64,000 nt of DNA from Candidatus Helarchaeota archaeon (GCA_019058315.1 JAHPZH010000005.1:288001-352000), one strand, 5' to 3'. Positions 1 to 22,434 are shown, counted from the stretch's first letter. Program-made: numbers and translations. Notes: a model not told the origin generated them from the sequence alone.

Positions 1-983
1 GCATTGTACATTTGAATCGCTTGAAGTGCACCCCCGATTGTTATCCTTGTGAGACGCTGTATGGGAATAAAGGAGACTCTTGCAACCTCTATGATCCCTT
101 CTAGTCCTCCGCTCCAAAAATGACCAGCAACCTTATCCAGATGAAGCCTTCCTGTCAAATAAAACTGGGAAGGAGCCCTGTAATAGACTATTCCATAGGA
201 AAAGTAATGGGAATCTCCACTCAAGATCATCTGGCATTTTTCTAATGAGTAATTGTTTCGTGAAAGGGTCAGAGACCCGTTCAATCCATGATATGACGCC
301 CGTGCCACAAGATAAGGAAATAAGAAATTGTCTCCAGAATTGGAATAAATAATATCAGGGTCGAGTTTTCGAACTGTATCTGATAGAGCAATCAATTTAT
401 CGACTTCGGTGGCTCCATCAATCGTGATATCTTCTTCGTTGAGGGTTACTTTTAGCTTTCGGATGGGGTCGTTCAAACTTGGAACTATGTAACTGGCACC
501 AATATCCGCGTCGAGATGTAAAATACGAAAATCTGGCAAAGTATAATCAATTTGATCTTGCGAATCTGCCAGCTTGAGATTTAAATGCCCATTTTTTTTG
601 GTATAATCGCCAAATGCAAGCGGAAAAAGATTGTTGTCATATAAAAACATCTGAGAAAGTGGAATATCTATGTTAAATACTGCACTGTTCTCAAGAGATA
701 CAACATCCCTAACCGTTCTTTTAAAATCTCGCACATTTACCTTTACCTCTATCACTTTTTTCTTTCGCTTGTGATTTATGTTGACGTACTTGTCAAGGGT
801 CTTTACATCTTCCACGCAATCATGATACCTTAATGCTCTTTTTAACTCGTATAAATTCTTGGAATACACATAAAATCTTGGATAATAATCAACGTGCATT
901 TTCTCTACTTGACCGTTCGGTTTCTTCAACCAAAGCGCTATTCCTCGATTTTCCACGTTCAGATCCAACAACCATGCTTTCAA
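1..983 (-). CDS. polB2: Family B DNA polymerase, PolB2 type (5' part; runs off the window edge)
   Basis: Hand translation from TTG at 983, open to position 1: KAWLLDLN..ALWLKKPNG..YYPRFYV..FNIDIPLSQMFLYDNNLFPLA..DPDIIYSNSGDNFLFPYL..HYFSYGIVYYR..LTGRLHLD..GLEGIIEVARVS..IQRLTRITIG. These motifs are typical of archaeal PolB2. Not in the ORF track because the stop is outside the window. Confidence 0.85.
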   Translation of the reverse strand, partial: MKAWLLDLNVENRGIALWLKKPNGQVEKMHVDYYPRFYVYSKNLYELKRALRYHDCVEDVKTLDKYVNINHKRKKKVIEVKVNVRDFKRTVRDVVSLENSAVFNIDIPLSQMFLYDNNLFPLAFGDYTKKNGHLNLKLADSQDQIDYTLPDFRILHLDADIGASYIVPSLNDPIRKLKVTLNEEDITIDGATEVDKLIALSDTVRKLDPDIIYSNSGDNFLFPYLVARASYHGLNGSLTLSRNNYSLEKCQMILSGDSHYFSYGIVYYRAPSQFYLTGRLHLDKVAGHFWSGGLEGIIEVARVSFIPIQRLTRITIGGALQAIQMYN

Positions 984-1047
984 TCTTGGAGCCTCTTATG
1001 TTCGCTTCTCATTGATCAAAAGATCATAATCTCTTAAAATTAGAAAC

Positions 1048-1087
1048 GGAGGGAGAGATAACTGAAAGAAAGTTAATTTGTCGGTTT
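1048..1087 (-). promoter_or_regulatory. Putative regulatory element upstream of polB2, shared with the radA-like operon
   Basis: + strand GGAGGGAGA-N11-GAAAGT..TTTGTCGG; same blocks at 22393-22434. Confidence 0.5.
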
Positions 1088-1193
1088 GCTTTTTGATTAA
1101 AATATTGAAAAATAGAATAAGTTTAAGGAGAATTTTTTCCCAGTTAAATTGTCAATTATACTATTAGAATTCAATTTTAAAGGATTGATTAAC

Positions 1194-1694
1194 ATGACAG
1201 ATATTGAAGAAGTAGATAAAAGATTTGAGTCAAAAATTAAAGAATTAAAAGAGATTCTACCAGAACATTATAAGAAAGATATGAGCTCACCGAGAAATTG
1301 CGCTGCTTGGACTGTTGCAAGTATTTTAGATATTTTAGGAATTGATAACCTTAACATTATTAACATGGCTACACCCTTAGCCGTAGTTGGTGGAAATTGT
1401 GGCGCATTGGAAGGCGGCTTAATGATGGTGGGCTTAATTCTCGGGAAAAAAGGAAAAAAACCCTTTAATCATTTGGTTGCAACTATAGAAGGATTAAAAT
1501 TTGTGAAAGCATTTGAAAAAGAGTTTGGTTCAATTAAATGTAAAGATTTAACCGGTCTTGATTTATTGACTGAAGAGGGACAAAAAGCTTATGTTAATGA
1601 AAATATCTGGGAACAAAAATGCTATAAACATGTTATTGGTGCAGTAAAGACCATTAGAGATTTATATAAACGAAAAATTGCTAAAATAATTTAA
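1194..1694 (+). CDS. C-GCAxxG-C-C family putative redox protein
   Basis: NCAAW, GNCGALEGG, IKCKDLTG, KCY; ATG at 1194 preferred over TTG at 1149. Confidence 0.8.
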   Translation: MTDIEEVDKRFESKIKELKEILPEHYKKDMSSPRNCAAWTVASILDILGIDNLNIINMATPLAVVGGNCGALEGGLMMVGLILGKKGKKPFNHLVATIEGLKFVKAFEKEFGSIKCKDLTGLDLLTEEGQKAYVNENIWEQKCYKHVIGAVKTIRDLYKRKIAKII

Positions 1695-1766
1695 TAAGAT
1701 TATTATTAAATACAAATTTTCAATTATTTATTTAAAAATTTAATAGACTTTAATGGACGAATAATT

Positions 1767-2285
1767 TTGGTCACAGTTGAGGAAGTAGAGAGACATTTTG
1801 AACTAAAAATTAAAGAATTAAAAGAAAATTTACCTTTGAAATATAAAAAGGAAAAAATTCAACCCCGAAATTGTGCTGCTTGGACTATGGCTAGTTTATT
1901 AGATATTCTGAACATTGAAGATACCAAAATTAATACTAATTTTATAAATATGGCATCCCCTTTAGCTGGAATTACTAGAATTTGTGGGGCTATTGGGGCT
2001 GGATTAATGATTATAGGATTAATTGTAGGAGAGAGGGGAGAAAGAGAAATTCCTCAATGGACAGCGGCAGCCGAGGGGATGAAGTTTGTAAGGCGTTTTG
2101 AAAAAAAATTTGAATCAATACAATGTCCTGTTCTAACAGGTCATGATTTACTAACATCAGAGGGAATGAAAGCATATATAAAGGAAGATGTTTGGGGAAA
2201 AAAGTGCTACTTGCATGTAACAAACGCAATTGAAATAATCGGTAGATTATATAAAAAAAAGATTGTAAATATCATTAAAATTTAA
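1767..2285 (+). CDS. C-GCAxxG-C-C family putative redox protein, tandem paralogue
   Basis: NCAAW, ICGAIGAG, IQCPVLTG, KCY; clearly similar to the upstream gene. Confidence 0.8.
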   Translation: MVTVEEVERHFELKIKELKENLPLKYKKEKIQPRNCAAWTMASLLDILNIEDTKINTNFINMASPLAGITRICGAIGAGLMIIGLIVGERGEREIPQWTAAAEGMKFVRRFEKKFESIQCPVLTGHDLLTSEGMKAYIKEDVWGKKCYLHVTNAIEIIGRLYKKKIVNIIKI

Positions 2286-2929
2286 TCTTTAGATTCTAAC
2301 TTTTTAGCTTCCTTTTCGGCTTCTATCTTTTTTGCCTCTTTCAATATTAGAATACCAATTATAGCACCTATGATGAATGGTATCGTTAATTGGAAAGGGA
2401 ATAGCCAAAAAGGCAGTAATAATGCGGGTGGGGGGTGTTGTTTATTTGGATCCCAAGTTCCTTGAATTACAGTTCTTAAATAGTAAGATATGGCAGCAGT
2501 TAACCAAGTATAAGCCCATGCTATAAATGTAGCAATACCTAACCATTTCGCTCGTTGTTTTCGATACAAATAAGATTTTTTGAAATAAGATAGATATGTT
2601 TTAAGTGTAATAATAACTACTACCGCAAAGGATGGCCAAACATGAATATTAAAAGACGGATCTTCTATTTCAAATGGTGGTGTACCAAATAATATCCCTC
2701 CAATAAAGCCCATCATTCCAGCCCACAGACCGAGATAGTATAGCGTCGTAGCAAAGCCACCAAATGCTCGATGTGATCTGAATATTACATCATTTAACTT
2801 TAAAAGAGCAAGTTTTTTCTTATGAAATCCAATCCAGTAACCAGTGAAGATTTGGACTGTTGCACAAAGGCAGCCTAGCAAGGTGACAATCGTATTATAC
2901 TCAGCTAATGCTATTGCCATAAAATACAC
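2282..2929 (-). CDS. Multi-pass membrane protein, possibly haem-b binding (DUF6529/cytochrome b561-like)
   Basis: About 5 hydrophobic helices; His at helix starts in RSHRAFG and FNIHVW. Confidence 0.5.
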   Translation of the reverse strand: MYFMAIALAEYNTIVTLLGCLCATVQIFTGYWIGFHKKKLALLKLNDVIFRSHRAFGGFATTLYYLGLWAGMMGFIGGILFGTPPFEIEDPSFNIHVWPSFAVVVIITLKTYLSYFKKSYLYRKQRAKWLGIATFIAWAYTWLTAAISYYLRTVIQGTWDPNKQHPPPALLLPFWLFPFQLTIPFIIGAIIGILILKEAKKIEAEKEAKKLESKD

Positions 2930-3059
2930 CTCTTAAAATATTTACAATTTTTCCCGGTTTATTGACACTTAACATAAGTAATTTTAAAATTTAATATTAT
3001 TTTTATTAATTTTATAAATAAAAAAATTTTTTGGACATTCTAATTCATTTTTTCTATTT

Positions 3060-3800
3060 TTAAAGAATCCATCCAAGAAAAATAAAACCTGTCGCAACCG
3101 TAACCCAGATATACCAAAAGCTAATACGAGGCCAAGGTCTATTCTTGATATTATAACCCATTTTAAATTGTTCATATCCAAAAAGTATCGCTAATATGAT
3201 TAAATTAATATCAAATACATAAGTCACCAATTCTCTTCTTTCAGGAGGTAAATAAGTCAAAAAGGCCAGATTTTGACCTAACCATGTTCCTATATGATCT
3301 AATTGAGCTTCAAATGGAAGACGAACAAAGAAAAATAAAAGCCCCATATGAGCAACTAAAATCCAAGAAAAAATCATAGAATGCATAATTACCCACTGCC
3401 AAGTACGTTTGGAAATACGTTCTTCAAAAAATAATCTACCTGATCTCCGCTCTATAAAAACAACAACAGCCCAAATTGAAAAAATTATTACGGTTAAAAT
3501 TGCCATTAATAATGTATTTACCAATCCACTAGCAGTTAACGGCATCATGAAGGATTGTATGAGAGAAATTATTCTACTGGTTATCGATTTATGATGAAAT
3601 GATGCACCTATTGTTATTATAATAATTGCATAAGCCCAGTTATGGGCCCACCTGGGGTCTTCTGCGAAGGCTCCTAATGCAAAGGGCATAAGCCAGAATA
3701 TTAAATATATTAATCCTAATAAAAAAAATCCAAAACCGGGACCAACTTGATATTTATTTGGTCTCCCCATTTCAATATCTTCTGAAGACAAATTAATCAC
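3060..3800 (-). CDS. Hypothetical multi-pass membrane protein
   Basis: 246-aa ORF with 6-7 hydrophobic segments. Confidence 0.65.
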   Translation of the reverse strand: MINLSSEDIEMGRPNKYQVGPGFGFFLLGLIYLIFWLMPFALGAFAEDPRWAHNWAYAIIIITIGASFHHKSITSRIISLIQSFMMPLTASGLVNTLLMAILTVIIFSIWAVVVFIERRSGRLFFEERISKRTWQWVIMHSMIFSWILVAHMGLLFFFVRLPFEAQLDHIGTWLGQNLAFLTYLPPERRELVTYVFDINLIILAILFGYEQFKMGYNIKNRPWPRISFWYIWVTVATGFIFLGWIL

Positions 3801-3962
3801 CCATAAAATAAAAAGAGTCTTCTCTTTCGAATTTTTGATTCTTTTGGTATAAAGGAAAGTTAATTTATTAGACTTTCTTTCATATTTTTTTGAACTTTAT
3901 ATTTTTTTATGATAAATTTAAGGATTATATATTCAATTAAAACATGACTAGAAATCTAAAAT

Positions 3963-4475
3963 GTGAAGAAAGTGGAAAAAAATAATAAAGAAATTTTAGA
4001 AAAAGCATTTAAATTAGGTCAAAAATACGAAAAAAGAAATACTGGATGTGCTCAAACAGCTATTGCAGCAATATTTGATGCTTTAGATATTTGGAATGAT
4101 GATGTATTTAAAGCTGCAAGCGGACTAGCTGATGGTTTAGGATTAACAGGAGATGGAAGCTGTGGTGCACTTGTAGGAGCTTCCATGGTAATTGGTTATT
4201 TATTCGGTAGGGAGAAAAAAGATTTTAACAATCCAATGAAACCTATGAAGTCTTATGAACTGGTTAAAAAATTACATGACCAATATGTAGAAAAATATGG
4301 CACATGTCGCTGTTATGATGTTCAAAAATCTCTTTGCGGAAGAACATTCGATTTATGGGATCCTAAACAAATGCAAGAAGCTTTTCAGTCAGGAATGTTA
4401 GAACATTGTTCCAAACTTGTTGGTACTATTGCACAAATGGCTACAAAAATAATTTTAGAAGAAAAAAAGAGTTAA
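3963..4475 (+). CDS. C-GCAxxG-C-C family putative redox protein
   Basis: GCAQ, ASGLADGLGLTGDGSCGALVG, CRCYDV, HCS. Confidence 0.88.
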   Translation: MKKVEKNNKEILEKAFKLGQKYEKRNTGCAQTAIAAIFDALDIWNDDVFKAASGLADGLGLTGDGSCGALVGASMVIGYLFGREKKDFNNPMKPMKSYELVKKLHDQYVEKYGTCRCYDVQKSLCGRTFDLWDPKQMQEAFQSGMLEHCSKLVGTIAQMATKIILEEKKS

Positions 4476-4503
4476 TATTTTAAGGATTTTTTTCCGACCT
4501 ATC

Positions 4504-7500
4504 TTACTCTTCTTCAATATTTTCCATTGCTTTTAGAAATTCTTCTCTCTCTTCAGGAGAGAGTCCAGCGAGTTCTTCCAGTATTACCAATTTTTCAATT
4601 TCTGGAATTTTTAAATCGAATATTCTGTCCATTTCGCTCTTGGATAAGATTGTAAATTCACCTTGGAAATATTCCTTAAGATAGGTCTGTTTAATTGATT
4701 TTATAGGCATTCTCCAATGAATTACATCCTTAATATCTTCATTTAAGGATTCACTACTTACTACACGTTTTGAAATTGATTTTTGCCTTTTTCTTAATAA
4801 AATAGCACTCGTGCTGATTCCAACACCTGCTGCTACTACCCCTATGATTATTATAATAATTATTATATTATCATAAGGAGGGAAGAATGGAGGAATCTTA
4901 AAGGGTCCATAAATTTTTATAGTAATATATAATGATTCACCAGTGTTATTTGCTTCATCAACTGGTCTTATTTCATAACTGTATTTTCCAGATGTTAAAT
5001 TTATAAGATCTGAGTAAAAATTCGATGTTGTATTTCCTAAACATTGTCCATTACGCCAGATTTGGTAATAAACAGTGCTATAATCAAAAGATGCTGTCCA
5101 TGAAATTGTTACATTACCTTGTTGAATGATAATTCCAGGATTTAAAGGTTTTGTAGGTGGTGTATTGTCTTGGACCGTTATGGAAGAAAAGAAAAAAGGC
5201 CCCCAATTATTAAAAGTATCATTGGCAATAATTGTATAAGATATTACTCCAAAAGCACTTGGAGTCCAATTATATTCATAAGTATTTCCTCCAATGGGAA
5301 CCATAGTATCATTTACTCCTCCAATTTCTATTATAACCTTCGAAATACCATCGGCATCATAAGCATCAATCCGAATCGAAGCTTCTTGCCCCAATTCTAA
5401 AGGATCTGTAATTTCAGTCAAATTTTCAAGCCAAGGTTCAATTGTAATAATTATTGATACATTAATATCTCCACTAACCGAATTCCAATTATTTAGATTA
5501 TCAGACATGTATACAGTATAAGGATAAATACCAATAGCACTAGGCTGCCAATCAGTCCATCTCCAAGTATTTCCACTTATATAATTCATTGTGTGGTTTG
5601 ATCCTTCATATTCTAATAATACTTGATTTATTCCTGAAAGATCAGATACATTGATAGTTATAGTTTCATTTTGACCCAAATCCAAAGGATCTGCGCTTTC
5701 TGTTAAGTTGCCATAAGTTGGAGAAGTAGTATCAATAACTTCAATTGTAGCTCCTCGTGAGTTCCAATTATTTGCACCATCTTCAGCCCAAATGGTATAA
5801 GGATAGTTGCCTATACTATTGGGTGTCCAATTATCGTATCTCCAATAATTTCCACCAATATTGGTCATGGTATGGTTAGATCCTTCAAATTCAATTAAGA
5901 CTTGAATAATACTTGACAAATCATAAACAACAGCATCTATTATTTTAGGTTGACCTAATTCCAGCGGATATATGGATTCGAGTACCGAATACATTATTTC
6001 CTCATCTGTTCCCCATTCACCATTAGTGTAATCATGCCATACCACATGGATACTGCTATTATTATCAGAAGTAATGCTTGCTGCAATACTATGATCATTA
6101 TTCCATCCATAATAATCGGATATACAAATTACATTAGACCAACCCGCGGTTGTATAGCTAGCATACTTTATATGATCTGCTGGACCTCCAAAATTAATCG
6201 AATCCTCCCAAACTACGTGGATATTATCATTTTTATCCGTGATAATACTGGGTCTAAAACTCCAATAATCATTCAATCCATAAATATCTGAAATACAAGT
6301 TGCATTAGACCAACCCGCAGCTGTATAGTTTACATAAAAAATTTCTCTATCTGTTCCCCATTCACCATCAGTTTCATCATCCCAAACTACTTGTAGATTT
6401 CCAGTCTTATCAACAGTGATGCAAGGGAGAAAACTGTCACCATCATTCCAACCATAAATATCTGAAATGCAAGTTGCATTAGACCAGCCTGCTGCTGTAC
6501 AATTTGCATAAAATATTTCTCTATCTGTTCCCCATTCTCCGTATGTATAATCCATCCAGACCACGTGTACATTTCCATTAATATCAGTAGAGATTCTAGG
6601 ATAATAACTACTATTATCATTCCAACCATAATAATCGGATATACAAGTTACATTAGACCACCCAGTAGCAGTATAATTTACATACATTATTTCAACATCA
6701 GTTCCCCATTCACCATCGGTATCATCATACCAAACCACATGAACATTTCCATTATTATCCACAGCGATATCTGGGTTAAGACTATTATGTACATTCCATC
6801 CGGTATAGTCATCTGAAATCACAGTTGCATTAGACCACCCAGCAGCAGTATAATTTACATACATTATTTCTATATCATTTCCATATTCCCCATTGGTACT
6901 ATCATACCAAACAACATGTATATTTCCATTATTATCCACAGCAATTCTAGGCCTCCGACTTGAATCATCATTCCACCCTGTATAATCGTCTGAAATCACT
7001 GTTACATTAGACCATCCAGCAACAGTATAATTTACATACATTATTTCAACATCAGTTCCCCATTCACCATCTGTATTATCCTCCCAGACCACGTGTATAT
7101 TTCCATTATTATCAGTAGCTATGGCTGGGTACCAACTAGTCCAATCATTCCACCCCGAACTGTCATCTGAAATCACTGTTGCATTAGACCAATTCATAGT
7201 TAGATTAATTATTGATGGAGGAGTGGTGTCTACCACTGTCACCGTCACGTTGTCCGTTGCCCAGTTGCCCGCAGTGTCGTTCACGCTGCACCTATAATCG
7301 TATGTGCCGATTCCCAGTGCAGGAAGGGTATACGTTATATTGGTTCCGACAGACCAGGTGCCGTCAGCCAGATAAGTGCCAACAAGTGTGATATTATACT
7401 CGTTAGGTGATATATCATTCCACTCCCATTCCAAGGTATACCCCGCAACTGCTCCCAGCTCCAATGTAATATCCGGTGCCCCTGCCAAAAGAGTTGGAGG

Positions 7501-10500
7501 AGCTGGAGGAATTAGCACCGTCACCGTAACGTTGTCCGATGACGAGTAGCCGAAAGTGTCGTTCACGCCGCATATATATACATATACGCCCATTCCCAGT
7601 GCAGGTAGGGTATATGTTACATTGGTCCCGACTGACCAAGTGCCGTCAGCTAGATAAGTGCTAATAATTGTAATATTATACTCATTAGGAGTTGCATCAG
7701 TCCAATTCCATTGTAGCTGATACCCCGCAACCGAGCCCTCATATAAATTGATATCTGGTGCGCCCGCCAGTAAATTCGGAGGTATGCTTTCCAGCACCGT
7801 CACCGTCACGTTGTCCCATGCCCAGTTGCCCGATGTGTCATTCACGCCGCACATATATTCATATACACCTGGTCCCAGCATAGGAAGGGTATACGTTATA
7901 TTGGTTCCGACTGACCAGGTGCCGTCACCCATATAAATGCCAATAAGGGTGATATTATACTCATTAGGTAATAAATCATTCCAATTCCATTCTAAGTTAT
8001 ACCCCGCAACCGAGCCCTCAGATAAGGTGATGTCTGGTGCGCCTGTAACTAAATTCGGGTTCATGCTGTCTACCACCGTCACCGTTACGTTGTCCGTTGC
8101 CCAGAGATCCGTAGTATCGTTCACGGCGCACATGTAATTGTATGTACCTAGTCCCAACGCCGGAAGGGTGTAGGTTATATTGGTCCCGACCGACCAGGTG
8201 CCGTCAGCAAGATAAGTGTAAATAAGGGTGATGTTATACTCGTTAGGATTTAAATCATTCCAAGCCCATTGCAATTGGTATCCCGCAACTGCTCCCAGCT
8301 CCAACGTGATATCCATTGCACCTGCTAGTAAAGTTGGAGGTATATTAAAAGGTTCAACTGTCACCGTCACATTGTCCCATGCCCAGTTGCCCGACGTGTC
8401 GTTTACGCCGCACATATAATCGTATATACCGGGTCCCAATGCAGGAAGGGTGTACGTTACATTGGTCCCGACAGACCACGTGCCGTCAGTAAGATAAGTG
8501 TCAATAAGGGTGATGTTATACTCGTTCGGTAATAAATCGTTCCAATCCCATTCTAATGTATAACCTGCAACCGCTCCCAGCTCCAGGGTGATGTCCAGTG
8601 CACCAGCAAGTAAATTCGGAGCCGTTCTGTCTACCACCGTCACCGTCACGTTGTCCCATGCCCAGTTGCCAAATGTGTCGTTCACGCTGCACATATATTC
8701 ATATACGCCTAGTCCCAGCACAGGAAGGGTATACGTTACATTAGTCCCGACCAACCACGTACCATCAGCTAAATAATTATCGACAAGAGTGATATTATAC
8801 TCGTTAGGATTAGTATCAGTCCAATTCCATTGCAGCTGATATCCTGCAACTGCTCCCAGCTCCAAGGTGATGTCAGGGGTAACCGCCGAAAGAAATGGAA
8901 TAAGTGGAAGATTTGCCACTGCCACCGTAAGGTTGTCCCATGCCCAGTTGCCCGACGTATCGTTCACGCCGCACATGAACTCATATACGCCTAGTCCCAA
9001 TGCAGGCAGGGTATAAGTTACATTGGTTCCGACTGACCAGGTGCCGTCAGCTAGATAACTCCCGATTAGAGTGATGTTATACTCATTCGGTAATAAATCA
9101 TTCCACGCCCATTCTAAGGTATACCCCGCAACAAAACCTTCATTTAGAATGATGTCAGGTGCTCCCGCTACTAAATTCGGAGGCGTAGTGTCTACCACCG
9201 TCACTGTCACGTTGTCAGATGCCCATGTGCTGTAGCCGAAAGTCTCATTCACGGTGCACATGTAATTGTATGTGCCTAGTCCTAACACCGGAAGGGTATA
9301 TGTTATATTTATACCAGAAACCCATCCACCACTATCTACCACACTGCCTACCAAAGTGATATTATACCGATCAGGTTTATAAGTAGACCAATTCCACTCT
9401 AAAACATAACCTGCAACTGCTCCCAGCTCTAATGTAACATCAGGTGCACCCGCCAGTAATAACGGAAGACAATTACAATCCACCGTTACCGTCACGTTGG
9501 CCCATGCCCAGTTGCCAGAACTGTCGTTCACGCCGCACATATACTCATATGTGCCCAGTGCCAAAGCCGGAAGGGTATACGTTACATTGGTCCCGACAGA
9601 CCAGCTGCCGTCAGCTATATAACTGCCAATAAGGGTGATATTATACTCGTTAGGAGCTACATCATTCCAATCCCATTCCAACATATAACCTGCAACAGAA
9701 CCCTCCAAAAATATAACATTAGGTGCACCCGCTACTAAGTTCGGAGGCGTGCTGTCTTCCACCGTCACCATCACGTTGTCCCATGCCCAGTTGCCCGCAG
9801 TGTCGTTCACGTTGCACCTATAATCGTATGTGCCTATTCCTAGCGCAGGAAGGGTATATGTTATATTGGTCCCGACTGACCAGCTGCCGTCAGCCAGATA
9901 AGTGCCAATAAGTGTGATATTATACTTGCTAGGATCAACATCAGTCCAAGCCCATTCCAACACATAACCCGCAACACTGCCCAGCTCTAAGGTTACATCA
10001 GGAGCACCTGCCAATAAATCTGGTTTTGGGTCGGGGTCTGGCACCGTTACCGTCACGTTATCCCATGCCCAGTTGCCCGCAGTGTCGTTCACGCCGCACA
10101 TATACTCGTATACGCCCGGTCCCAAGGCGGGAAGGGTATATGTTATATTAGTCCCGACAGCCCAAGTCCCGTCAACTACAACACTACCAAAAAGTGTGAT
10201 ATTATACTCGTTAGGTAATAAATCATTCCAATCCCATTCTAGGACATAACCTGCAACAGATCCCAAAGGTAACCAGGCATCAGGTGCACCCGCCAGTAAA
10301 TTAGGAGGCGTGCTGTCTACCACCGTCACTGTCACATTGTCAGTTCCCCAGTCGCCCGATGTGTCGTTCACACCGCACATATACTCATATACGCCTAGTC
10401 CCAACGCAGGAAGAGTATACGTTATATTGGTTCCCACCGACCACGTGCCGTCAGCTAAATAAGTGCTGACAAGTGTAATGTTATACAAGTTAGGTTCTAA

Positions 10501-13500
10501 ATCATTCCAATCCCATTGCAGCTGATACCCCGCAACTGCTCCTAGCTCCAACGTGATGTCCGGTGCGCCTGCTAATAAATTCGGAGGGGAGGGGTCTGGC
10601 ACCGTAACCGTCACGTTATCCGATACCCAGTTGCCCGAAGTGTCGTTCACGCCGCACATATACTCGTATGTGCCGATTCCCAAAGCTGGAAGGGTATATG
10701 TTATATTAGTCCCGACAGACCAGGTCCCGTCAGCTAAATAAGTGCCAATAAGGGTAATGTTATACTCATTAGGAAATAAATCATTCCAATCCCATTCTAA
10801 GGTATACCCCGCAACTGCTCCCAACTCCAACGTGATATCAGGTGCACCTGCAAGTAAATTGGGTGGCGTAATATCTTGAACAGTAATAGAATTATTTAAA
10901 AAATTCCAATAGCCATCTATAGTATCATTAGCAAAAATGGTATATTCAATAACCCCAATTAAGCTTGGTGTCCAATTATACTCGTAAGTATTACCACCAA
11001 TGGGATTCATTGTATAATTGGCATTAATTATTTTAATTATTACTGTATCTACACTGGTTTCATTATCATAAGCATCAATTCGGATACATGCTTCTTGTCC
11101 AAATTCTACAGGATCTGTAATTTCAGTTAAGTTTTCTAATCTTGGTGGAAAATAAACAGTCGTCCAAACTTCAGAAGATGTGCTAACAAATCCTACCTTG
11201 TCAAAAGTTTCAAGTACATAGTAATACGTATCCCCATCTTGTATATTATTATCAAGAACTGATGTATTTATTGTACCTGAAGTATTTGTTACTAAAGTAG
11301 TATAGGGTCCCCCAGAACTCGTACTCCGCCACAGTACATAATAATCAATGCCGCTACCAGTAGCGTTTCCAATTCCAGGATCATCATAACCTGGATTTCC
11401 AGACCAATCAATTAAAATTGATCTTGCTCTAGTTATTGGAGGTAGTGCAATTGGTTGAGCAGCAGTTGGTGGGGTGTTATCCAGTTCTAAATAAACATGA
11501 GAATAGACAGATATACCAGAAGTTTCATTTTTTGCAGTTATGTTTACTAAATAGTTAGAATCAAAACGAGTATTAGACATTGAAATTGTGTGGTTATTAA
11601 TATACTGTGTATTACCTAAATCAGTTGTAGATTCTGCTGTCCCTCCATTACTATCGATCCTCGACCAATCAACAGTGACGTTAAGCCCCGCAAAATTCGT
11701 ATCAATAATTAAATCGATAGTTGATCCATTTTTACAACTTAATGATGAAGGGGTTACGTATTCAAAGATAGGGTATGGAATTGGGGGAGCAGATTGTAAT
11801 TTGTAGCTAATAGGGGTGGTTGCAGGATTACTTAGATCTGTTTTATATCTTCTATATTCGAGTTCTGCCCGATCCACATCTGAAACGTTATCAAATAGGT
11901 CGTAAACAATCCTGAAATAGTAAGGATCTGTTGTTAATGTGCTTCCATCAGGTATATCAAATCCAGTAGCACACCATCCTAATTCACCAAATTGCTGAAT
12001 ATCATTTAAATACATATATGGCGTACCTCCATATAATTCAAATGAAGGTATCATCTCTTGTCTTGGCAGATACATCCACATTCCTCCATGAGTTTCAGAA
12101 GTAACCATAATATAATCTGCAATACCTTCATTACCGGAAGGTGGTATTGTGGGTGGGTCAGTTGTCGGATCCCCTCCATTTAACAAATTATCATCTGCAT
12201 CGGTTCCACTAAAATAAATATATTTTTCACTGCCAACCGGATAATCGGGATTGGCATCTGCAGGAACATATCCCGGATATCCGCCCGGATTCCCACCCAG
12301 AATGGCTGAAAAATCAGTTCTCGTTGCATTATCAAACTGAACTGTCGGTAACCACATACCTACATCTAAAAAATTATAACCCCATGCTGTAATAGAGAGT
12401 GCATCTTTATCACCTTGTTCCATATTTTGGTAAAAAATGTGTACAGATTGTTCAATATACCACTCTTCTACATCTCCTACAATAGGTATATTAGTTAGAT
12501 AAGCTTGTTCATAGCTATTTTTTTGCAAAATAACTCGGACTGGTCCATTTTTAACTGCCAGACGATCTCCTTCGGTATCCCACCCATTCCAACCCGGTTG
12601 ATTAGGTGGCAGGGATAGTTGTATTGCGTATTCATTTGGATTATCAATTCCAGTTCCGCGGGTATTATAATATGTTCCACCCCATGTTCCGTAGGTCATA
12701 ATATCTTTGTAAATATCGATAGCATCCAAACTTAAAATCGAACATGCTCTTTCTAAATGTAATCCCGTAAAACCTTTGTCCATTTCATAGACAACATCCA
12801 CTCCATCACTACCCGGAGCTATAATTTTCAAACTGTCAATTATATCAGGATCATTATTATTAAACCGTTTTTGGTAAATTGGTGTCGTGACGGTTAAATT
12901 GCTTGGATCCCAACTCACTTTAGTTTGAAATGTCGGTATTTCTTGTTTTGTTATATTATTAAAATAAATATACATGAAAGATACTCCCCCATCAATTGGA
13001 TCTGAAATGTTAATTTCCAATCTCCAAGGAAAATTTTGCCTATCCCACCACGTATTTTCTCCAACATACCTTCCATTTTCCATATAAAAACAAATTTCAT
13101 CATCATAGTCAATGGCATATGGTACTTGAGTTCCAGTATCCCTCCCGTATAGATCAATTGGTTCGTAGTTATCTGTTCCATTTTTAGAAACATATGTATG
13201 AGTCGAATTAAATATAGGATCATATAGGGGATTACCTAAAGGTCCAGATAACATTCCCCAATCCCACATTAATGGCCATCCCTTCTCATCTATTTGATAT
13301 GGCACTTCAACCCATTGGTTTGAAGCGTTATAATATAGAACACGAATATAACTTTCATTCAATCCCCCTAGTGCACTGAACACGTATGGACTCTCATTCA
13401 TTCTAATGATTAATGGGTAACCTACCCTAGTCAAATTTGGTTCATTTGCGACTTTTGAAGTTAATGGAAACTTAATGTCATAAATCTCATTGGGAATTCT

Positions 13501-13650
13501 AATTTCATTAAGGCTAATATATATGTTAATATCAGGATTATACGTTATTTTATCATCCAAATCAAAGAAAGAGCTAATACCAATAGAATTTAATAATATT
13601 AAAGTTGATATTAGAATTATTAATCCACATTTTAACCTTTTACTCTTCAT
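4504..13650 (-). CDS. Giant single-pass cell-surface protein (signal/anchor, N-terminal domain, FN3, 13 Ig-like repeats, 7-blade beta-propeller, Ig/FN3, TM helix, cytoplasmic tail)
   Basis: 3048-aa ORF; hydrophobic N-terminus; many N-x-S/T sequons; TM IIIIIIIIGVVAAGVGISTSAILL followed by RKRQK. Confidence 0.9.
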   Translation of the reverse strand: MKSKRLKCGLIILISTLILLNSIGISSFFDLDDKITYNPDINIYISLNEIRIPNEIYDIKFPLTSKVANEPNLTRVGYPLIIRMNESPYVFSALGGLNESYIRVLYYNASNQWVEVPYQIDEKGWPLMWDWGMLSGPLGNPLYDPIFNSTHTYVSKNGTDNYEPIDLYGRDTGTQVPYAIDYDDEICFYMENGRYVGENTWWDRQNFPWRLEINISDPIDGGVSFMYIYFNNITKQEIPTFQTKVSWDPSNLTVTTPIYQKRFNNNDPDIIDSLKIIAPGSDGVDVVYEMDKGFTGLHLERACSILSLDAIDIYKDIMTYGTWGGTYYNTRGTGIDNPNEYAIQLSLPPNQPGWNGWDTEGDRLAVKNGPVRVILQKNSYEQAYLTNIPIVGDVEEWYIEQSVHIFYQNMEQGDKDALSITAWGYNFLDVGMWLPTVQFDNATRTDFSAILGGNPGGYPGYVPADANPDYPVGSEKYIYFSGTDADDNLLNGGDPTTDPPTIPPSGNEGIADYIMVTSETHGGMWMYLPRQEMIPSFELYGGTPYMYLNDIQQFGELGWCATGFDIPDGSTLTTDPYYFRIVYDLFDNVSDVDRAELEYRRYKTDLSNPATTPISYKLQSAPPIPYPIFEYVTPSSLSCKNGSTIDLIIDTNFAGLNVTVDWSRIDSNGGTAESTTDLGNTQYINNHTISMSNTRFDSNYLVNITAKNETSGISVYSHVYLELDNTPPTAAQPIALPPITRARSILIDWSGNPGYDDPGIGNATGSGIDYYVLWRSTSSGGPYTTLVTNTSGTINTSVLDNNIQDGDTYYYVLETFDKVGFVSTSSEVWTTVYFPPRLENLTEITDPVEFGQEACIRIDAYDNETSVDTVIIKIINANYTMNPIGGNTYEYNWTPSLIGVIEYTIFANDTIDGYWNFLNNSITVQDITPPNLLAGAPDITLELGAVAGYTLEWDWNDLFPNEYNITLIGTYLADGTWSVGTNITYTLPALGIGTYEYMCGVNDTSGNWVSDNVTVTVPDPSPPNLLAGAPDITLELGAVAGYQLQWDWNDLEPNLYNITLVSTYLADGTWSVGTNITYTLPALGLGVYEYMCGVNDTSGDWGTDNVTVTVVDSTPPNLLAGAPDAWLPLGSVAGYVLEWDWNDLLPNEYNITLFGSVVVDGTWAVGTNITYTLPALGPGVYEYMCGVNDTAGNWAWDNVTVTVPDPDPKPDLLAGAPDVTLELGSVAGYVLEWAWTDVDPSKYNITLIGTYLADGSWSVGTNITYTLPALGIGTYDYRCNVNDTAGNWAWDNVMVTVEDSTPPNLVAGAPNVIFLEGSVAGYMLEWDWNDVAPNEYNITLIGSYIADGSWSVGTNVTYTLPALALGTYEYMCGVNDSSGNWAWANVTVTVDCNCLPLLLAGAPDVTLELGAVAGYVLEWNWSTYKPDRYNITLVGSVVDSGGWVSGINITYTLPVLGLGTYNYMCTVNETFGYSTWASDNVTVTVVDTTPPNLVAGAPDIILNEGFVAGYTLEWAWNDLLPNEYNITLIGSYLADGTWSVGTNVTYTLPALGLGVYEFMCGVNDTSGNWAWDNLTVAVANLPLIPFLSAVTPDITLELGAVAGYQLQWNWTDTNPNEYNITLVDNYLADGTWLVGTNVTYTLPVLGLGVYEYMCSVNDTFGNWAWDNVTVTVVDRTAPNLLAGALDITLELGAVAGYTLEWDWNDLLPNEYNITLIDTYLTDGTWSVGTNVTYTLPALGPGIYDYMCGVNDTSGNWAWDNVTVTVEPFNIPPTLLAGAMDITLELGAVAGYQLQWAWNDLNPNEYNITLIYTYLADGTWSVGTNITYTLPALGLGTYNYMCAVNDTTDLWATDNVTVTVVDSMNPNLVTGAPDITLSEGSVAGYNLEWNWNDLLPNEYNITLIGIYMGDGTWSVGTNITYTLPMLGPGVYEYMCGVNDTSGNWAWDNVTVTVLESIPPNLLAGAPDINLYEGSVAGYQLQWNWTDATPNEYNITIISTYLADGTWSVGTNVTYTLPALGMGVYVYICGVNDTFGYSSSDNVTVTVLIPPAPPTLLAGAPDITLELGAVAGYTLEWEWNDISPNEYNITLVGTYLADGTWSVGTNITYTLPALGIGTYDYRCSVNDTAGNWATDNVTVTVVDTTPPSIINLTMNWSNATVISDDSSGWNDWTSWYPAIATDNNGNIHVVWEDNTDGEWGTDVEIMYVNYTVAGWSNVTVISDDYTGWNDDSSRRPRIAVDNNGNIHVVWYDSTNGEYGNDIEIMYVNYTAAGWSNATVISDDYTGWNVHNSLNPDIAVDNNGNVHVVWYDDTDGEWGTDVEIMYVNYTATGWSNVTCISDYYGWNDNSSYYPRISTDINGNVHVVWMDYTYGEWGTDREIFYANCTAAGWSNATCISDIYGWNDGDSFLPCITVDKTGNLQVVWDDETDGEWGTDREIFYVNYTAAGWSNATCISDIYGLNDYWSFRPSIITDKNDNIHVVWEDSINFGGPADHIKYASYTTAGWSNVICISDYYGWNNDHSIAASITSDNNSSIHVVWHDYTNGEWGTDEEIMYSVLESIYPLELGQPKIIDAVVYDLSSIIQVLIEFEGSNHTMTNIGGNYWRYDNWTPNSIGNYPYTIWAEDGANNWNSRGATIEVIDTTSPTYGNLTESADPLDLGQNETITINVSDLSGINQVLLEYEGSNHTMNYISGNTWRWTDWQPSAIGIYPYTVYMSDNLNNWNSVSGDINVSIIITIEPWLENLTEITDPLELGQEASIRIDAYDADGISKVIIEIGGVNDTMVPIGGNTYEYNWTPSAFGVISYTIIANDTFNNWGPFFFSSITVQDNTPPTKPLNPGIIIQQGNVTISWTASFDYSTVYYQIWRNGQCLGNTTSNFYSDLINLTSGKYSYEIRPVDEANNTGESLYITIKIYGPFKIPPFFPPYDNIIIIIIIIGVVAAGVGISTSAILLRKRQKSISKRVVSSESLNEDIKDVIHWRMPIKSIKQTYLKEYFQGEFTILSKSEMDRIFDLKIPEIEKLVILEELAGLSPEEREEFLKAMENIEEE
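5980..7191 (-). repeat. Seven ~59-60-aa beta-propeller-like coding repeats
   Basis: WSN(A/V)TxISD..GWN..S..P.I..D.NGNxHVVWxD...GEWGTD.EIMY, seven copies. Confidence 0.85.
7222..10866 (-). repeat. Thirteen tandem ~92-aa (~280 bp) Ig-like coding repeats
   Basis: PPNLLAGAPDITLELGAVAGY.L.W.WND..PNEYNITL...YLADGTWSVGTNITYTLPALG.G.Y.YMCGVNDT.GNWAWDNVTVTV counted 13 times; also near-identical at DNA level. Confidence 0.92.
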
Positions 13651-16334: not shown

Positions 16335-16355
16335 TCCTTCTTATTATATTTCATT

Positions 16356-16952: not shown

Positions 16953-17025
16953 AAAAAAAAAGGAGATTTCTGAAATTAAAATTGAATGCAATACTATAGA
17001 AAAAACATATTTAGATTGTTGAATG

Positions 17026-17793
17026 CTAACTTATTAATCCTAACATATATGGGATTGCCAAATATGGAACATAAGCTAATACAATCTCTACAACTACATC
17101 ATAAGCAAGTGCTCCGAATTCAATTAATGGAGGGGCTCGACTCAAGAAAGGATATAAACCAACTTCAATCCAGCGTGTTCCAGCTAACCATTCCGATAAT
17201 GTCCAGACGCTTATAAATGTTAACATTACAAATAATAAATAAAATCCTCTTTTTCGCTGTTCTGGTTCCGCTCTAATAAAGAAAATTATATTTATTACAA
17301 TCATTAAACTCATAAAAATCACTGCTATAATTGGAAACATATCTCTTATTGAAGGTACAAATAATCCAACAAATGGGAATTTGACGCTATCCCTAAGAGT
17401 GCTAAACACCAAAACTAAAAGTATAACTACAAATATTATGATTGAAGATTTCCTTGTTTCTTCATCCCTAATTTTGTCAGCTCCAAATGTTCCCAATACT
17501 GCCACTGCACTTCCTTCTGAAATTCCTTGTAATGGGGCGGAAATCCATAAGGGAATCTCGATTCCAAATAGGTATTTGGCCTGTATTATACGAGTGCCAC
17601 CTATTTGTAAAGACACCTCAACTAATGACCAAATTATTGTTCCAAATAGAAAGATCCAAAAATAATCTAGTCTTTCATTCTTTTTCCAATCATAAATTAC
17701 TAGAATAACTATGATGATAGATAGAAATAATTTGGTATTCCAATTAGTGCCAAAACTGCCACCTCTAATCATAAAAATACTTTCAATAACCAT
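17026..17793 (-). CDS. Hypothetical multi-pass membrane protein
   Basis: About 7 hydrophobic segments; two related WxLxE..GTR motifs suggest internal duplication. Confidence 0.65.
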   Translation of the reverse strand: MVIESIFMIRGGSFGTNWNTKLFLSIIIVILVIYDWKKNERLDYFWIFLFGTIIWSLVEVSLQIGGTRIIQAKYLFGIEIPLWISAPLQGISEGSAVAVLGTFGADKIRDEETRKSSIIIFVVILLVLVFSTLRDSVKFPFVGLFVPSIRDMFPIIAVIFMSLMIVINIIFFIRAEPEQRKRGFYLLFVMLTFISVWTLSEWLAGTRWIEVGLYPFLSRAPPLIEFGALAYDVVVEIVLAYVPYLAIPYMLGLIS

Positions 17794-17942
17794 ATTCTCA
17801 CTTCTAGATATTGAATATAATTCCAGCTGAACACTTTGAATATATTTTTAATTATTTTTACAATCAATTAAATAATCTATGGAACTATTTTGAGAATTTT
17901 ATTATTTTTCATATTTCGTTTAATTTAAATTTGAGATGTGTA

Positions 17943-19316: not shown

Positions 19317-19465
19317 AATTCAAAAAATTTTACCGATTTTAAAATATTATAAGTCAAATATATCATAAATTAGTCAAGAAATCTTATTTTAGTTAATGAG
19401 TTTGTGAAAAAAATTCTTATTACTTTTCTTAATTGTATTTTAAAAAGAATGTGAAGTTGATTAAA

Positions 19466-20794
19466 ATGACTGAAAGAAAAAACGTAGTTGTAGTTTCTGC
19501 AAAAAGGGCTCCAATGGGAAAAAGTTCTTGGAATCCCGCTGCTAAACCAGGAATTTTTTATTGGGCTAATGCTCAAGACTTTGGTGGACAGATTTTTAGA
19601 AATATTTGGGAAGATGCTAAGAAGAAAGCACCTGATCTCAAGCCAGAGGAGCTTGAAGCGATTGCGTATGGTTGTTCAGGGCAGTATGGAGCACAATCTG
19701 GAGATATAGCTCGGCTTTCCGCAGTGGTCCAAAAATCAAAAGATTTTTACCCGGTATTTGGGGTTACTTGTGATTCCTACTGTAATGCTGGAACTTCTGC
19801 AATACAATATATTAATAACATGCTAGCCCTCGGTCAAGGTGAAGTGGGAGTAGCCGGGGGACAAGAATTACTATCTCTTTTCCCTTTAGGCTCTTCAATG
19901 ATGGCGCACATACAAGATAAGAAAACAGGGAAACCCACTCATAAAAGAGTACTTGAAATGCATAAATTATTCATGAAACGAACATTAGGTCTTGGACCTG
20001 CAGGTGAAAAAATTGCTTGGATGTGGAATTTAAAGAGAGAAGATTTAGATGAATTTGCCGCTCGTAGTCACCGGAATATGATTAAAGTTCAAAGACAAAA
20101 AGATAAATACGAACCTAGAATAATGCCAATAACTATGCCGGTCTGTAATGAAAAAGGCAAACCAATAAAAGATCCTGAAACAAGAAAAATAAAAACAATT
20201 ACGCATACAGTTGATGAGACTCCACGAGCTGTTTATTTAGATAATCCTGAAAAAGCAATGGAAAAAATGAAAAGCCTTAAAGCACGATTTAGTGATGGAG
20301 AACATTTTCCCCCAAAGTACATACATGCTGGAAACGCTAGTGCGATATCGGATGGTGGAGCTGCGATGCTTTTAATGACCGAAGAAAAGGCATCACAATT
20401 AGGCGCTAAACCTCTTGCTAGAATTGTTGATATCTCTAATTCAGCATCGGATCCTTCAGTTGTTCTTACAGGACCTATTCCAGCTACAAAGAAAATATTA
20501 AAAAGAAATGGATTAAAATTTGATGATTTTGATTTGATACACATTAACGAGGCGTTTGCGAGTGTCCCATTTGTAGTCATGCACGAATTAGGAAGTAATG
20601 CTTTAACTGATGAGCGTTTAAATACGTCGGGGGGTGCTATAGCTGGGGGACATCCGATAGGAGCATCTGGAGTTGCTTGGGCTGTGGAGTTAATATGGGA
20701 AATGATCCATAATAAGAAAAAGCTTGGACTTTTCACCTTGTGTGCTGGGTTTGGCAATGGAATGTCTGTGGTCTTTGAAAATATGCAAATCTAA
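19466..20794 (+). CDS. Thiolase (acetyl-CoA C-acyltransferase)
   Basis: Catalytic Cys in SYCNAG; INEAFAS; GGAIAGGHPIGASG; TLCAGFGNG. Confidence 0.93.
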   Translation: MTERKNVVVVSAKRAPMGKSSWNPAAKPGIFYWANAQDFGGQIFRNIWEDAKKKAPDLKPEELEAIAYGCSGQYGAQSGDIARLSAVVQKSKDFYPVFGVTCDSYCNAGTSAIQYINNMLALGQGEVGVAGGQELLSLFPLGSSMMAHIQDKKTGKPTHKRVLEMHKLFMKRTLGLGPAGEKIAWMWNLKREDLDEFAARSHRNMIKVQRQKDKYEPRIMPITMPVCNEKGKPIKDPETRKIKTITHTVDETPRAVYLDNPEKAMEKMKSLKARFSDGEHFPPKYIHAGNASAISDGGAAMLLMTEEKASQLGAKPLARIVDISNSASDPSVVLTGPIPATKKILKRNGLKFDDFDLIHINEAFASVPFVVMHELGSNALTDERLNTSGGAIAGGHPIGASGVAWAVELIWEMIHNKKKLGLFTLCAGFGNGMSVVFENMQI

Positions 20795-20890
20795 CATTAA
20801 ATAAAATTTCTACTCTTTTTTTAAACAATTTTTTTTAACCATTTAAAAAAAATTAAGAGATTTTGAAAGATATTTCTCTTTATACCAAAT

Positions 20891-21082
20891 TTATGTATAA
20901 TAAGGTAGGGTAGGTTTATCAAATTCCAGGCCTATAAGAATTTCATAAGTTTCACAACTTGGACATTTGACATCATTTAGAGGGGTTTCGCCCTCTAATC
21001 CAAAAAATATATTGCATTTTATACAATAAAATGACAGCGTTGGTTTTAAATCCGTTTTTTTTAATTCAATTTTTTCCTTCAA
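20891..21082 (-). CDS. Small zinc-ribbon protein
   Basis: YCIKC...VKCPSC; purine-rich RBS-like AGAGG upstream. Confidence 0.6.
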   Translation of the reverse strand: MKEKIELKKTDLKPTLSFYCIKCNIFFGLEGETPLNDVKCPSCETYEILIGLEFDKPTLPYYT

Positions 21083-21241
21083 ATTTTTACTAACCTCTTC
21101 TATAATTTTTTTTCATTTTTTTATAGAATTTAAGGTCAAACTTCAATAATTCTAACATTTTCAGCCATTACTTTAATTATATCATTTTGTCGATTTAAAT
21201 TTTATTAATTTAATTAAATTAATAACTTTAACATTTTTCTT

Positions 21242-21517
21242 TTATTTTGGTGTTTCCGATTCTAAATTTTTTAATTTTTGAACCTCATCCTTCAGTTCTT
21301 GAATTTCTTTTTGTAATTCGAGTAAAATAGAGATGAAGAGAACCTCAGATACCAGTGGTCGTGAGATATAACCTCCAGCATCTGCTCGTAAGCGTGCCGC
21401 ATTCATAATTTTGTCGAAGTTCTTTTTATCTGCTGGACGCAAGGCTCGTCGAAATTCTGCCCAACTCGCAATTTCGTGTTCCAATATCATTCTAAACGTA
21501 GGTATTGTTCGTCCCAT
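21242..21517 (-). CDS. Small PolB2-associated helical protein (arCOG07300-like)
   Basis: MGRTIPTFR..WAEFRRALRPADK..F...; ATG overlaps the stop of the upstream radA-like gene (TAATG at 21519-21515). Confidence 0.75.
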   Translation of the reverse strand: MGRTIPTFRMILEHEIASWAEFRRALRPADKKNFDKIMNAARLRADAGGYISRPLVSEVLFISILLELQKEIQELKDEVQKLKNLESETPK

Positions 21518-22236
21518 TAAGGTTCCCCCAGCCAAAAGTTGAGATTTCTTTGTAGAGGTATCGGGGTTGATTTCCACATGATATTTTTTTGGAAACGACC
21601 TCCTTTGAGTTTATAGAAATCTATACGATTTTGATAATCTAATACATGAACAATTACATCAGCAAAATGACTCATAATCTTGCCTCCTGCTGGTTTAAAC
21701 CGTGAGTTCTGAGCATATCCTGTAGAAACTACAACAACCGCATTTTTTTCAAGCGCAAATTTTTTAAGCTTTCCGAGAATTTTTAAGAGATCTCCAAAGC
21801 AAGACTGTGTTTTGGGGTCGAACATACCAGTCAATCCCGAAATGAGAAGAAGTCGTGCCTCTAATCCTTTCATTTTATTTATGACAATATCGACCGTTTG
21901 TTCCCAAGTGAAGAATCGGGAGATGAGAATACGTGATAAGACATGACGAGGGTTTAGTTTTTTAGTGACGGATTTTTGGGAGATGAAGTAGGGATCAAAG
22001 GAAACATCACCGTCCACATAGATTACTTTCGAATTAAGACCATTAAGTGATCGCGGTAGTTGAGCTGTAACTGATAGCGTTAGAAAAATCTGTCTAATTA
22101 CAGATCTTTGCCCATATAAAAGATAAAGAGTTCTGGGCATAAATCCTCCATCAAGTAAGTCGTCTAATTCTGCATTTTCACTGGTCAATTTAGTTATGTT
22201 TTTTTGTCGATTGTATTCGTGTGAAGCGGAGTTCAT
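21517..22236 (-). CDS. Inactive RadA/RecA-superfamily paralogue of the type found with PolB2
   Basis: ELDDLLDGG, VTAQLPRSLNGLNSKVIYVDG, KPAGGKIMSH are RadA-like; Walker A degenerate (YGQRSVIRQ); Walker B lacks Asp (LLLISGL). Confidence 0.82.
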   Translation of the reverse strand: MNSASHEYNRQKNITKLTSENAELDDLLDGGFMPRTLYLLYGQRSVIRQIFLTLSVTAQLPRSLNGLNSKVIYVDGDVSFDPYFISQKSVTKKLNPRHVLSRILISRFFTWEQTVDIVINKMKGLEARLLLISGLTGMFDPKTQSCFGDLLKILGKLKKFALEKNAVVVVSTGYAQNSRFKPAGGKIMSHFADVIVHVLDYQNRIDFYKLKGGRFQKNIMWKSTPIPLQRNLNFWLGEP

Positions 22237-22392
22237 TTCATTACCTCAACAGCACATATTAACTTAAACTACAATATTTGAGTTAAAATTCCGACATTTC
22301 GACAGCCTCGGGTAGGAATTTGCCAACATTCGATCAATTCCTCTAGAATTTTAACACCATAGAGAGATACCTTTTGGAAAATATTAATTGTA

Positions 22393-22434
22393 GGAGGGAG
22401 ATCTGGAAAAGTGAAAGTATTGAATTTTTGTCGG
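22393..22434 (-). promoter_or_regulatory. Putative regulatory element upstream of the radA-like operon, shared with polB2
   Basis: + strand GGAGGGAGA-N11-GAAAGT..TTTGTCGG. Confidence 0.5.

Follow-up and report, generated by a model that had tools for sequence, protein, structure and literature searches.

A stretch of 64,000 nucleotides from the genome of a Candidatus Helarchaeota archaeon (GCA_019058315.1 JAHPZH010000005.1:288001-352000, referred to as the window) holds the complete three-protein set of the PolB2 mutasome: the family B DNA polymerase PolB2, the inactive RadA paralogue iRadA and the small protein PPB2 (arCOG07300). Judged from the sequences, the identities of the three proteins are nearly certain. 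Their genes lie in two units about 20 kb apart, and upstream of both units a box was found that is conserved in related genomes. A complete mutasome in two units, co-regulated through this conserved putative damage box, is in our view quite probably the explanation of the locus. The genome of the window (G000) has 5.8 Mb, a GC content of about 30 % and 12 contigs; the window corresponds to G000:C2:288001-352000. The following features form the core of the locus:

Window 3-983, minus strand: 5' part of polB2 (327 codons) with a TTG start at 983; the whole gene, G000:C2:286773-288983, codes for 736 aa and extends past the window start.
Window 1048-1084, minus strand: upstream element of polB2, on the coding strand CCGACAAA (1077-1084), then CTTTC-TTTCAGTT-ATCTCTCCCTCC (1048-1072).
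Window 984-21241, no strand assigned: about 20 kb of genes between the two units, unrelated according to the protein family matches of the encoded products.
Window 21242-21517, minus strand: gene for PPB2, 91 aa, all-helical, with the N-terminus MGRTIPTFR.
Window 21517-22236, minus strand: gene for iRadA, 239 aa, RadA/Rad51 fold, Walker motifs lost, with the C-terminus QRNLNFWL resembling a PCNA-interacting peptide (PIP).
Window 22393-22436, minus strand: distal element of the iRadA-PPB2 unit, CCCGACAAAA, then AATACTTTCAC, then ATCTCCCTCC, about 160-200 nt before the ATG.

An earlier note on this DNA had read the gene at the window start as polB2, and profile searches bear this out. The polymerase matched the Pfam models for DNA_pol_B and an exonuclease domain (exo1). 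The best NCBIfam profiles, covering the protein end to end, were NF004416 (367 bits) and NF004418 (349 bits); the next model reached 177 bits. In an alignment of 29 PolB2 orthologues motif C was invariant as HGIVDS, with the first aspartate of DxD replaced by isoleucine, motif A was kept as DF[T/S]SMYP (DFTSMYPT in G000), and the Exo I motif DxE was lost. The active-site segment of G000 was near-identical to that of a Lokiarchaeota PolB2 scored 'IVD' in a table of Timinskas et al. 2025 (PMC11791011). Because of these motif features and the match to the Lokiarchaeota entry, the polymerase is a PolB2 in the published sense, and a grouping with PolB1 or PolB3, which the note had considered fatal to its reading, does not apply. 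Nor is another polB2 the real partner of the pair: in the assembly of G000, from which about 6 % of the genome is missing, there are two family B polymerase genes, the second of which, on C6, scores above the cut-off for the replicative-type model NF004417, and the window polymerase is the sole non-replicative family B polymerase of the genome. A conserved 'DK' loop motif as a PolB2-specific character was rejected; the GR.H.D block looks generic for archaeal PolB and the following lysine occurs only in G000. The next relatives of the polymerase were those of Bathyarchaeia, with 38-40 % identity in an alignment-based scan. A scan of contigs of close relatives with one protein as query gave no matches, whereas the alignment-based scan did find relatives.

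The coupled pair on the same strand, 20 kb away, was likewise recognized correctly in the note, and its partner families are iRadA and PPB2. The ATG of PPB2 overlaps the stop codon of iRadA as TAATG, and all three mutasome genes are on the minus strand. The 239-aa protein matched Pfam Rad51 (1.4e-18), has no Walker A GK[T/S] and carries serine instead of the Walker B aspartate. Walker A lysine and Walker B aspartate were absent in all ten aligned iRadA proteins and kept in the five other RadA paralogues of G000, which are two RadA genes and three further paralogues. The C-terminal QRNLNFWL of iRadA fits the pattern QxxLxx[F/W][F/L]; PolB2 has no such tail. All iRadA proteins had PIP-like C-termini, which read QTSLDHFW in G001 and [K/R]NxTLDxW[F/L/V] at the extreme end in the sister family. 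In PPB2, the N-terminus MGRT[V/I]P.FR with Arg3 and Arg9 was present in 27 of 29 orthologues, the two deviating ones probably reflecting start-codon calls, and in the predicted fold a disordered N-terminal arm is followed by four helices (mean predicted local distance difference test score 77). By its motif, the clamp-binding part appears to be the inactive RadA; the small protein, to which the ImuB analogy of the note would assign this role, is a helical protein with an MGRT arm. Two further RadA-related loci were observed in G000. A 136-aa frame at G000:C2:12808-13218, its middle 64-71 % identical to the C-terminal half of iRadA, has neither a PPB2 gene alongside nor a box upstream; it probably represents what is left of an iRadA duplicate. 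The other locus, G000:C3:1275763-1278121, shows an operon-like arrangement of radA and orc: a second, complete radA gene, whose Walker A is intact, is followed after 28 nt by a gene for an Orc1/Cdc6 paralogue in the same orientation.

The mutasome idea itself is not new. Makarova et al. 2014 (PMC4104785) described the operon of PolB2, arCOG07300 and inactive RadA and proposed a complex. The name PolB2 mutasome was given by Timinskas et al. 2025 (PMC11791011), who presented the model of a PolB2:iRadA:PPB2x3 pentamer and drew the comparison with Pol V; their tables include an iRadA-PPB2-PolB2 operon of 'Candidatus Lokiarchaeota'. They located the PCNA motifs mostly on iRadA and the MGRT arm with Arg3 and Arg9 on PPB2. 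The proteins of G000 agree with this system in the IVD motif and dead exonuclease of PolB2, the missing Walker A and B motifs of iRadA, the MGRT arm of PPB2 and a PIP-like motif on iRadA instead of PolB2. The mutasome-like logic stated in the note was thus right in outline but already published, and the published counterpart is Pol V, not ImuA/ImuB/DnaE2. With Pol V (UmuD'2C-RecA) and ImuA-ImuB-DnaE2 the archaeal set shares the logic of a damage-induced polymerase lacking proofreading, a RecA-family protein and a clamp-binding motif. Only the RecA fold is homologous, however, and the polymerase belongs here to family B, not to family Y or C. In contrast to ImuA-ImuB-DnaE2, an ImuB-like inactive Y-family adaptor is missing, the inactive RadA bears the clamp motif and the small partner is a 91-aa helical protein. 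G000 differs from the published PolB2 mutasome in its two units 20 kb apart, and Helarchaeota-type relatives even have three; a conserved promoter box for the units is not described in PMC11791011. What goes beyond the literature is, first, the stepwise dispersal of the operon among Asgard archaea and, second, as far as sequence comparison can tell, a conserved box of the DNA damage-responsive element (DDRE) type at each dispersed unit.

The gene order was surveyed in 40 related genomes of the class, including Promethearchaeota, Helarchaeota, Hermod-, Thor- and Odinarchaeota, a synteny comparison that the note had proposed. PolB2 orthologues were detected in 36 of these genomes, and iRadA orthologues likewise in 36 of 40. 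Three adjacent genes of the same orientation are not present in G000, which concerns the gene organisation and not the proteins. The arrangements found were:

Bathyarchaeia: iRadA-PPB2-PolB2 contiguous.
G032, G010, G026 and G038: canonical contiguous iRadA-PPB2-PolB2.
Most Promethearchaeota: polB2 immediately preceded by PPB2; iRadA separated from them by unrelated genes, either 0.9-5.1 kb upstream, in convergent orientation or more than 6 kb away.
The own order (G000, G001, G003, G005, G006): iRadA and PPB2 paired, polB2 apart from the pair.
G002 and G004 (Helarchaeota type): three units, PPB2 being on a third contig.

Among the own-order relatives with both genes, polB2 and iRadA were on different contigs in five of five genomes, while G000 has them on the same contig, C2, 20 kb apart; polB2 was not detected in G005. 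At a closed-contig locus of 'Harpocratesius' neither partner was present within 6 kb. The protein family matches of the intervening genes agree with the note in that about 20 kb of unrelated genes separate the cassette. A recent 20-kb insertion peculiar to G000 is not supported, the dispersal being old, order-wide and with break points that differ between Asgard lineages; a comparison of the flanks of G000 with those of the relatives, intended to date an insertion, revealed no shared neighbours. Dispersal with varying break points is a trait of Asgard lineages, in which all three genes are still conserved, and the comparative evidence for it is solid. The operon break-up is graded, from the contiguous state over the detachment of iRadA to two and finally three units, and offers a natural experiment on the continued association of the three proteins. 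Timinskas et al. 2025 (PMC11791011) analysed only genes in mutual vicinity and called interspersed arrangements rare.

The split might also reflect a functional uncoupling, with the iRadA-PPB2 pair serving another polymerase or the control of recombination and PolB2 acting alone. Extra two-gene operons of iRadA and arCOG07300 in haloarchaea (Makarova et al. 2014, PMC4104785) would fit such a division, and at the thresholds used four relatives had an iRadA match without a PolB2 match and four others the reverse. These gaps, however, concern fragmented assemblies and are frequently located where a contig ends. The PPB2 arm is near-invariant (27/29), the PolB2 motifs show no variation whether the genes of a genome are split or not, and both units keep the same box. 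Purified Dpo2 of S. islandicus is active by itself, and the role of its partners is so far putative. We consider an uncoupling very improbable. Under the preferred explanation, two transcription units would be present, polB2 alone and the coupled iRadA-PPB2 pair, and the three proteins most likely assemble in trans in the way modelled for the contiguous operons. The MGRT arm of the PPB2 trimer would lie between PolB2 and iRadA, and the PIP-like C-terminal tail of iRadA may tether the complex to PCNA. Binding of a damage-responsive activator to the box would induce both dispersed units together. PolB2 would then extend primers whose ends face lesions or mismatches, and a co-regulated Y-family polymerase may perform the preceding insertion; the order of Dpo4 followed by Dpo2 proposed for Sulfolobus is the model for insertion by a Y-family enzyme and extension by PolB2. 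PMC7390963 and PMC8764526 describe S. islandicus Dpo2 as damage-inducible, needed for targeted mutagenesis and an extender of mismatches and lesions.

The upstream regions of both units of G000 share, in the same order and on the coding strand, the words CCGACAA(A), ACTTTC and ATCTC(T)CCCTCC. The box of polB2 begins 85 nt before the TTG start. The composite CGACAA-N-CTTTC-N-CCCTCC occurred at two places only in the 5.8-Mb genome, a post hoc count in which the pattern was derived from these very sites. Conservation across genomes is the basis on which the motif has to be judged because the tests within the genome were not significant. In G001, G003, G004, G005 and G006 the consensus A[C/G]TTTC-N4-A[T/C]CTCTC, usually preceded by AATA, was present before polB2 and/or iRadA, and the PolB2 proteins of the five box-bearing relatives are only 45-58 % identical. 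The pattern STTTCNNNNAYCTCTC had 30 matches in the five relatives and its reversed version 5. About half of the matches were intergenic and oriented towards a gene that starts mostly about 90-130 nt downstream; the full range of the distance between box and start codon in the order was 85-181 nt. A weaker copy was detected at -108 before the lone PPB2 gene of G002. The following genes of the relatives have the box upstream:

polB2: G003, G006.
iRadA: G001, G005, G006.
TIGR03916 'DNA modification/repair radical SAM' gene (S-adenosylmethionine; above cut-off): G003, G005.
HerA-like ATPase: G004.
92-aa TrmB-like helix-turn-helix protein: G005, G006.
Proteins of 48-64 aa without known relatives: G001, G006.

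G000 was also scanned with a matrix derived solely from the sites of the relatives, which placed the polB2 site fifth genome-wide with a score of 20.2. The top three sites were:

Rank 1, C11:638719, score 34.1: small-protein paralogue downstream.
Rank 2, C3:1299368, score 29.4: small-protein paralogue downstream.
Rank 3, C3:1298245, score 21.9: PLD-like nuclease downstream.

A flexible-spacer consensus from the relatives matched three places in G000, the iRadA site and the two small-protein loci, and none in the reversed control. Conservation in the relatives and the relatives-only matrix show the motif to be more than chance. The sole Y-family (DinB/Dpo4-like) polymerase gene of G000, C11:197529-198665 (region G000:C11:197437-198665), carries ATTATTTTC-TATA-ACCTCTC (box variant ATTATTTTCTATAACCTCTC) at -92, one of three genome-wide matches to A[AT]TA.TTTC.{4}A[TC]CTCTC. 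The two mutasome units hence share a conserved box, putative in its function, with a small group of genes that leans towards DNA metabolism. The radA genes of G000 have no box upstream.

Some of the sites in G000 precede genes that deserve a description of their own. The two best matches of the genome, G000:C11:638719-639010 and G000:C3:1299368-1299664, are located 98-103 nt before paralogous proteins of 52-64 aa, which end in ...FW.LY...LNS and are each followed by a gene for a small CxxC or membrane protein; their orthologues in G001 and G006 have the same box. Pfam and the ESM Atlas offered no usable match for these proteins (the 64-aa member was looked up in the Atlas); they are candidates for damage-induced microproteins. 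At G000:C3:1298245-1299306, a gene for a 304-aa PLD-like (HxK) nuclease has AATACTTTCAGTGTACTCTC at -147.

The box resembles the only experimentally defined DNA-damage element of the Archaea. According to Le et al. 2017, as cited in PMC6061795, Sulfolobales have a damage-responsive element that is bound by Orc1-2. Sun et al. 2018 (PMC6061795) gave for S. islandicus the consensus AATAGTTTCRGWDTACTCWS, which holds ANTTTC and is located 23-55 nt before start codons; Orc1-2 footprints the DDRE, and the element is needed for induction by 4-nitroquinoline 1-oxide (NQO). Common to both are the core A[C/G]TTTC[A/G], AATA before it, xxCTC[T][C] after 4 nt and a location before the PolB2 gene (dpo2). 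In our own comparison the order consensus AATA[C/G]TTTC[A/G][C/G]NNA[T/C]CTCTC agreed with AATAGTTTCRGWDTACTCWS at about 16 of 20 positions, and single sites of G000 reached 19/20 (before the PLD-like nuclease) and 18/20 (C6:37838), whereas the reversed genome contained none within two mismatches. ACTTTC is present at both units of G000. The difference in the motif concerns positions 14-15, which are AT or AC here instead of TA. The two systems would be functionally analogous and perhaps homologous. A clear Orc1-2 orthologue was not found in G000; among its four Orc1/Cdc6 genes, one is Orc1-1-like and the other three have 1FNN as best solved relative. A regulator of the Orc1/Cdc6 type, suggested by the analogy to Sulfolobales, appears doubtful. 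Candidates for the regulator are three Orc1/Cdc6 paralogues of the non-initiator type (C6:65440, C11:236319 and C3:1275763) and the orthologue of the 92-aa TrmB-like helix-turn-helix protein (C6:44605-44856). A second archaeal motif is of interest for comparison. Boubriak et al. 2008 (PMC2556686) reported for Halobacterium sp. NRC-1 the UV-B motif TTTCACTTTCA before radA1, top6B and two uncharacterised genes. Tandem words of the TTTCA type are a common trait (CTTTCTTTCA at polB2 and CTTTCACTTTTC at iRadA of G000), and the Halobacterium motif has DNA-repair genes downstream. It differs in the second half, which is ATCTCTC in the order consensus, and in G000 the radA genes are not among the box-bearing ones.

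Several results have to be set against a common control through the box. Within G000, the longest common word of the two upstream regions had 9 nt, a length matched by 47 % of shuffles, and the local alignment (Smith-Waterman) scored 51, compared with 47±11 for 3000 random intergenic pairs, 35 % of which scored at least 51. At iRadA of G000 the spacer of the box measures 10 nt, not 4, and the distance to the ATG is about 180 nt. The matrix gave 10 matches in G000 and 5 in the reversed control, whose maximum was 23.9, and looser versions of the box were not enriched genome-wide (23 vs 19 in the reversed control). The orthologue of the radical-SAM gene in G000 has no box upstream. The distance to the start codon, mostly about 90-130 nt, exceeds the 23-55 nt of Sulfolobus. 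For the four Orc1/Cdc6 genes of G000, the best solved relative was in no case the Orc1-2 homologue 1W5S, and none of the four has a box upstream. The shared words could accordingly be chance or a lineage-typical promoter feature unrelated to damage, with the two units expressed independently. The similarity of the upstream regions, which is not above the null, and the frequency of the short AT-rich parts of the motif would both be in line with this; also, the 11-mer TTTCAGAAAAT of the sister family, tried as a marker of the regulon, was rejected as most of its matches were inside coding frames. Against chance stands the strict box before orthologous units in five other genomes, in the same orientation and at a similar distance, with a reversed control 6-fold lower, and the box also precedes DNA-repair genes. 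We regard this explanation as improbable. The claim of the note that both loci carry the same upstream motif holds for the shared words and their conservation in the relatives, but not for the similarity within G000, which does not exceed that of random intergenic pairs. Joint control, the second part of that claim, gains plausibility from the conserved shared element and stays an inference. On the sum of the sequence comparisons, co-regulation of the two units through the box is reasonably likely, and for damage induction the balance leans slightly to the positive side.

The word CCGACAA/TTGTCGG deserves separate attention, as it might be the real operator in place of the TTTC box, occupied until damage by a LexA-type dimeric repressor on palindromes resembling TTGTCG-N4-CGACAA. 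In the sister family a strongly conserved ATTTCAGAAAATTGTCGG is found in the iRadA promoter, about 53 nt from the ATG and with a TATA-like run following after about 12 nt; most of the genomes have TTGTCGG at this place. G000 contains the word inverted in both distal elements, forward about 60 nt before the iRadA ATG and twice in palindrome-like form downstream of polB2. The proximal copy and an observation beyond the window start are:

Window 22291-22305, minus strand: proximal element CTGTCGAAATGTCGG, 55-69 nt before the iRadA ATG; placement and orientation match the TTGTCGG box of the sister family at -53.
G000:C2:286183-286268, about 500-600 nt downstream of polB2 and 1.7-1.8 kb outside the window, on the side of its start: two palindrome-like words of the form TTGTCG(G)...(C)GACAA, namely TTGTCGGATTAGACAA and TTGTCGAGACCGACAA.

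The words downstream of polB2, at C2:286183 and C2:286262, form a possible operator cluster. The 60 kb surrounding the loci contain seven copies of the word, against an expectation of about 2.6 estimated from base composition. Among the own-order genomes other than G000, however, the word was present only before polB2 of G001, and in most genomes of the sister family it is absent before PPB2-polB2, a promoter that shares only T[C/T]AGAAAAT. Genome-wide, CCGACAAA occurred at the expected frequency, with 81 copies observed and about 88 estimated from base composition. That this word instead of the TTTC box is the operator seems unlikely to us; it may represent a separate operator, and such a role is compatible with co-regulation through the box.

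The neighbourhood of the units contained further observations. Downstream of the PPB2 gene lies the following frame:

Window 20891-21082, minus strand: open reading frame for a 63-aa Zn-ribbon protein (CxxC...CxxC; CIKC...CPSC) with a weak TackOD1 match.

A CGACAA word was found about 105 nt upstream of this frame; its membership in the PolB2 system is uncertain. The 20 kb between the units encode, besides this Zn-ribbon protein, three C_GCAxxG_C_C redox proteins, a 3048-aa repeat/surface protein, a helix-turn-helix protein, a nitroreductase-ferredoxin, a CoA ligase and a thiolase. The three paralogous genes for the C_GCAxxG_C_C proteins, annotated as 'putative redox-active', are arranged within 3.3 kb (window 1149-4475). 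The first of them is divergent from polB2, and both genes have a 165-nt intergenic region in common. A TATA-like run faces this redox gene, with a TTGTCGG located about 12 nt ahead of the run. The 3048-aa frame (window 4504-13650, minus strand) has a GC content of 0.41-0.48 in its middle against a background of about 0.32, which fits a repeat expansion. Known RNA families of the Rfam type were not found in window 1-24000.

Taken further, the box would define an Asgard damage regulon of the Orc1-2/DDRE type, in which AATA[C/G]TTTC..CTCTC links the dispersed mutasome genes with the Y-family polymerase, the PLD-like nuclease, the radical-SAM repair enzyme and the 50-64-aa proteins. We put this forward as a tentative proposal. 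If it is true, the element would be ancient and pan-archaeal, and the operon could fall apart without a loss of co-regulation. A confirmation would support the ancient origin of the regulatory element across the Archaea and, with the box, a short list of targets and candidate regulators, would make damage signalling in the prokaryotes most closely related to eukaryotes accessible to experiment.

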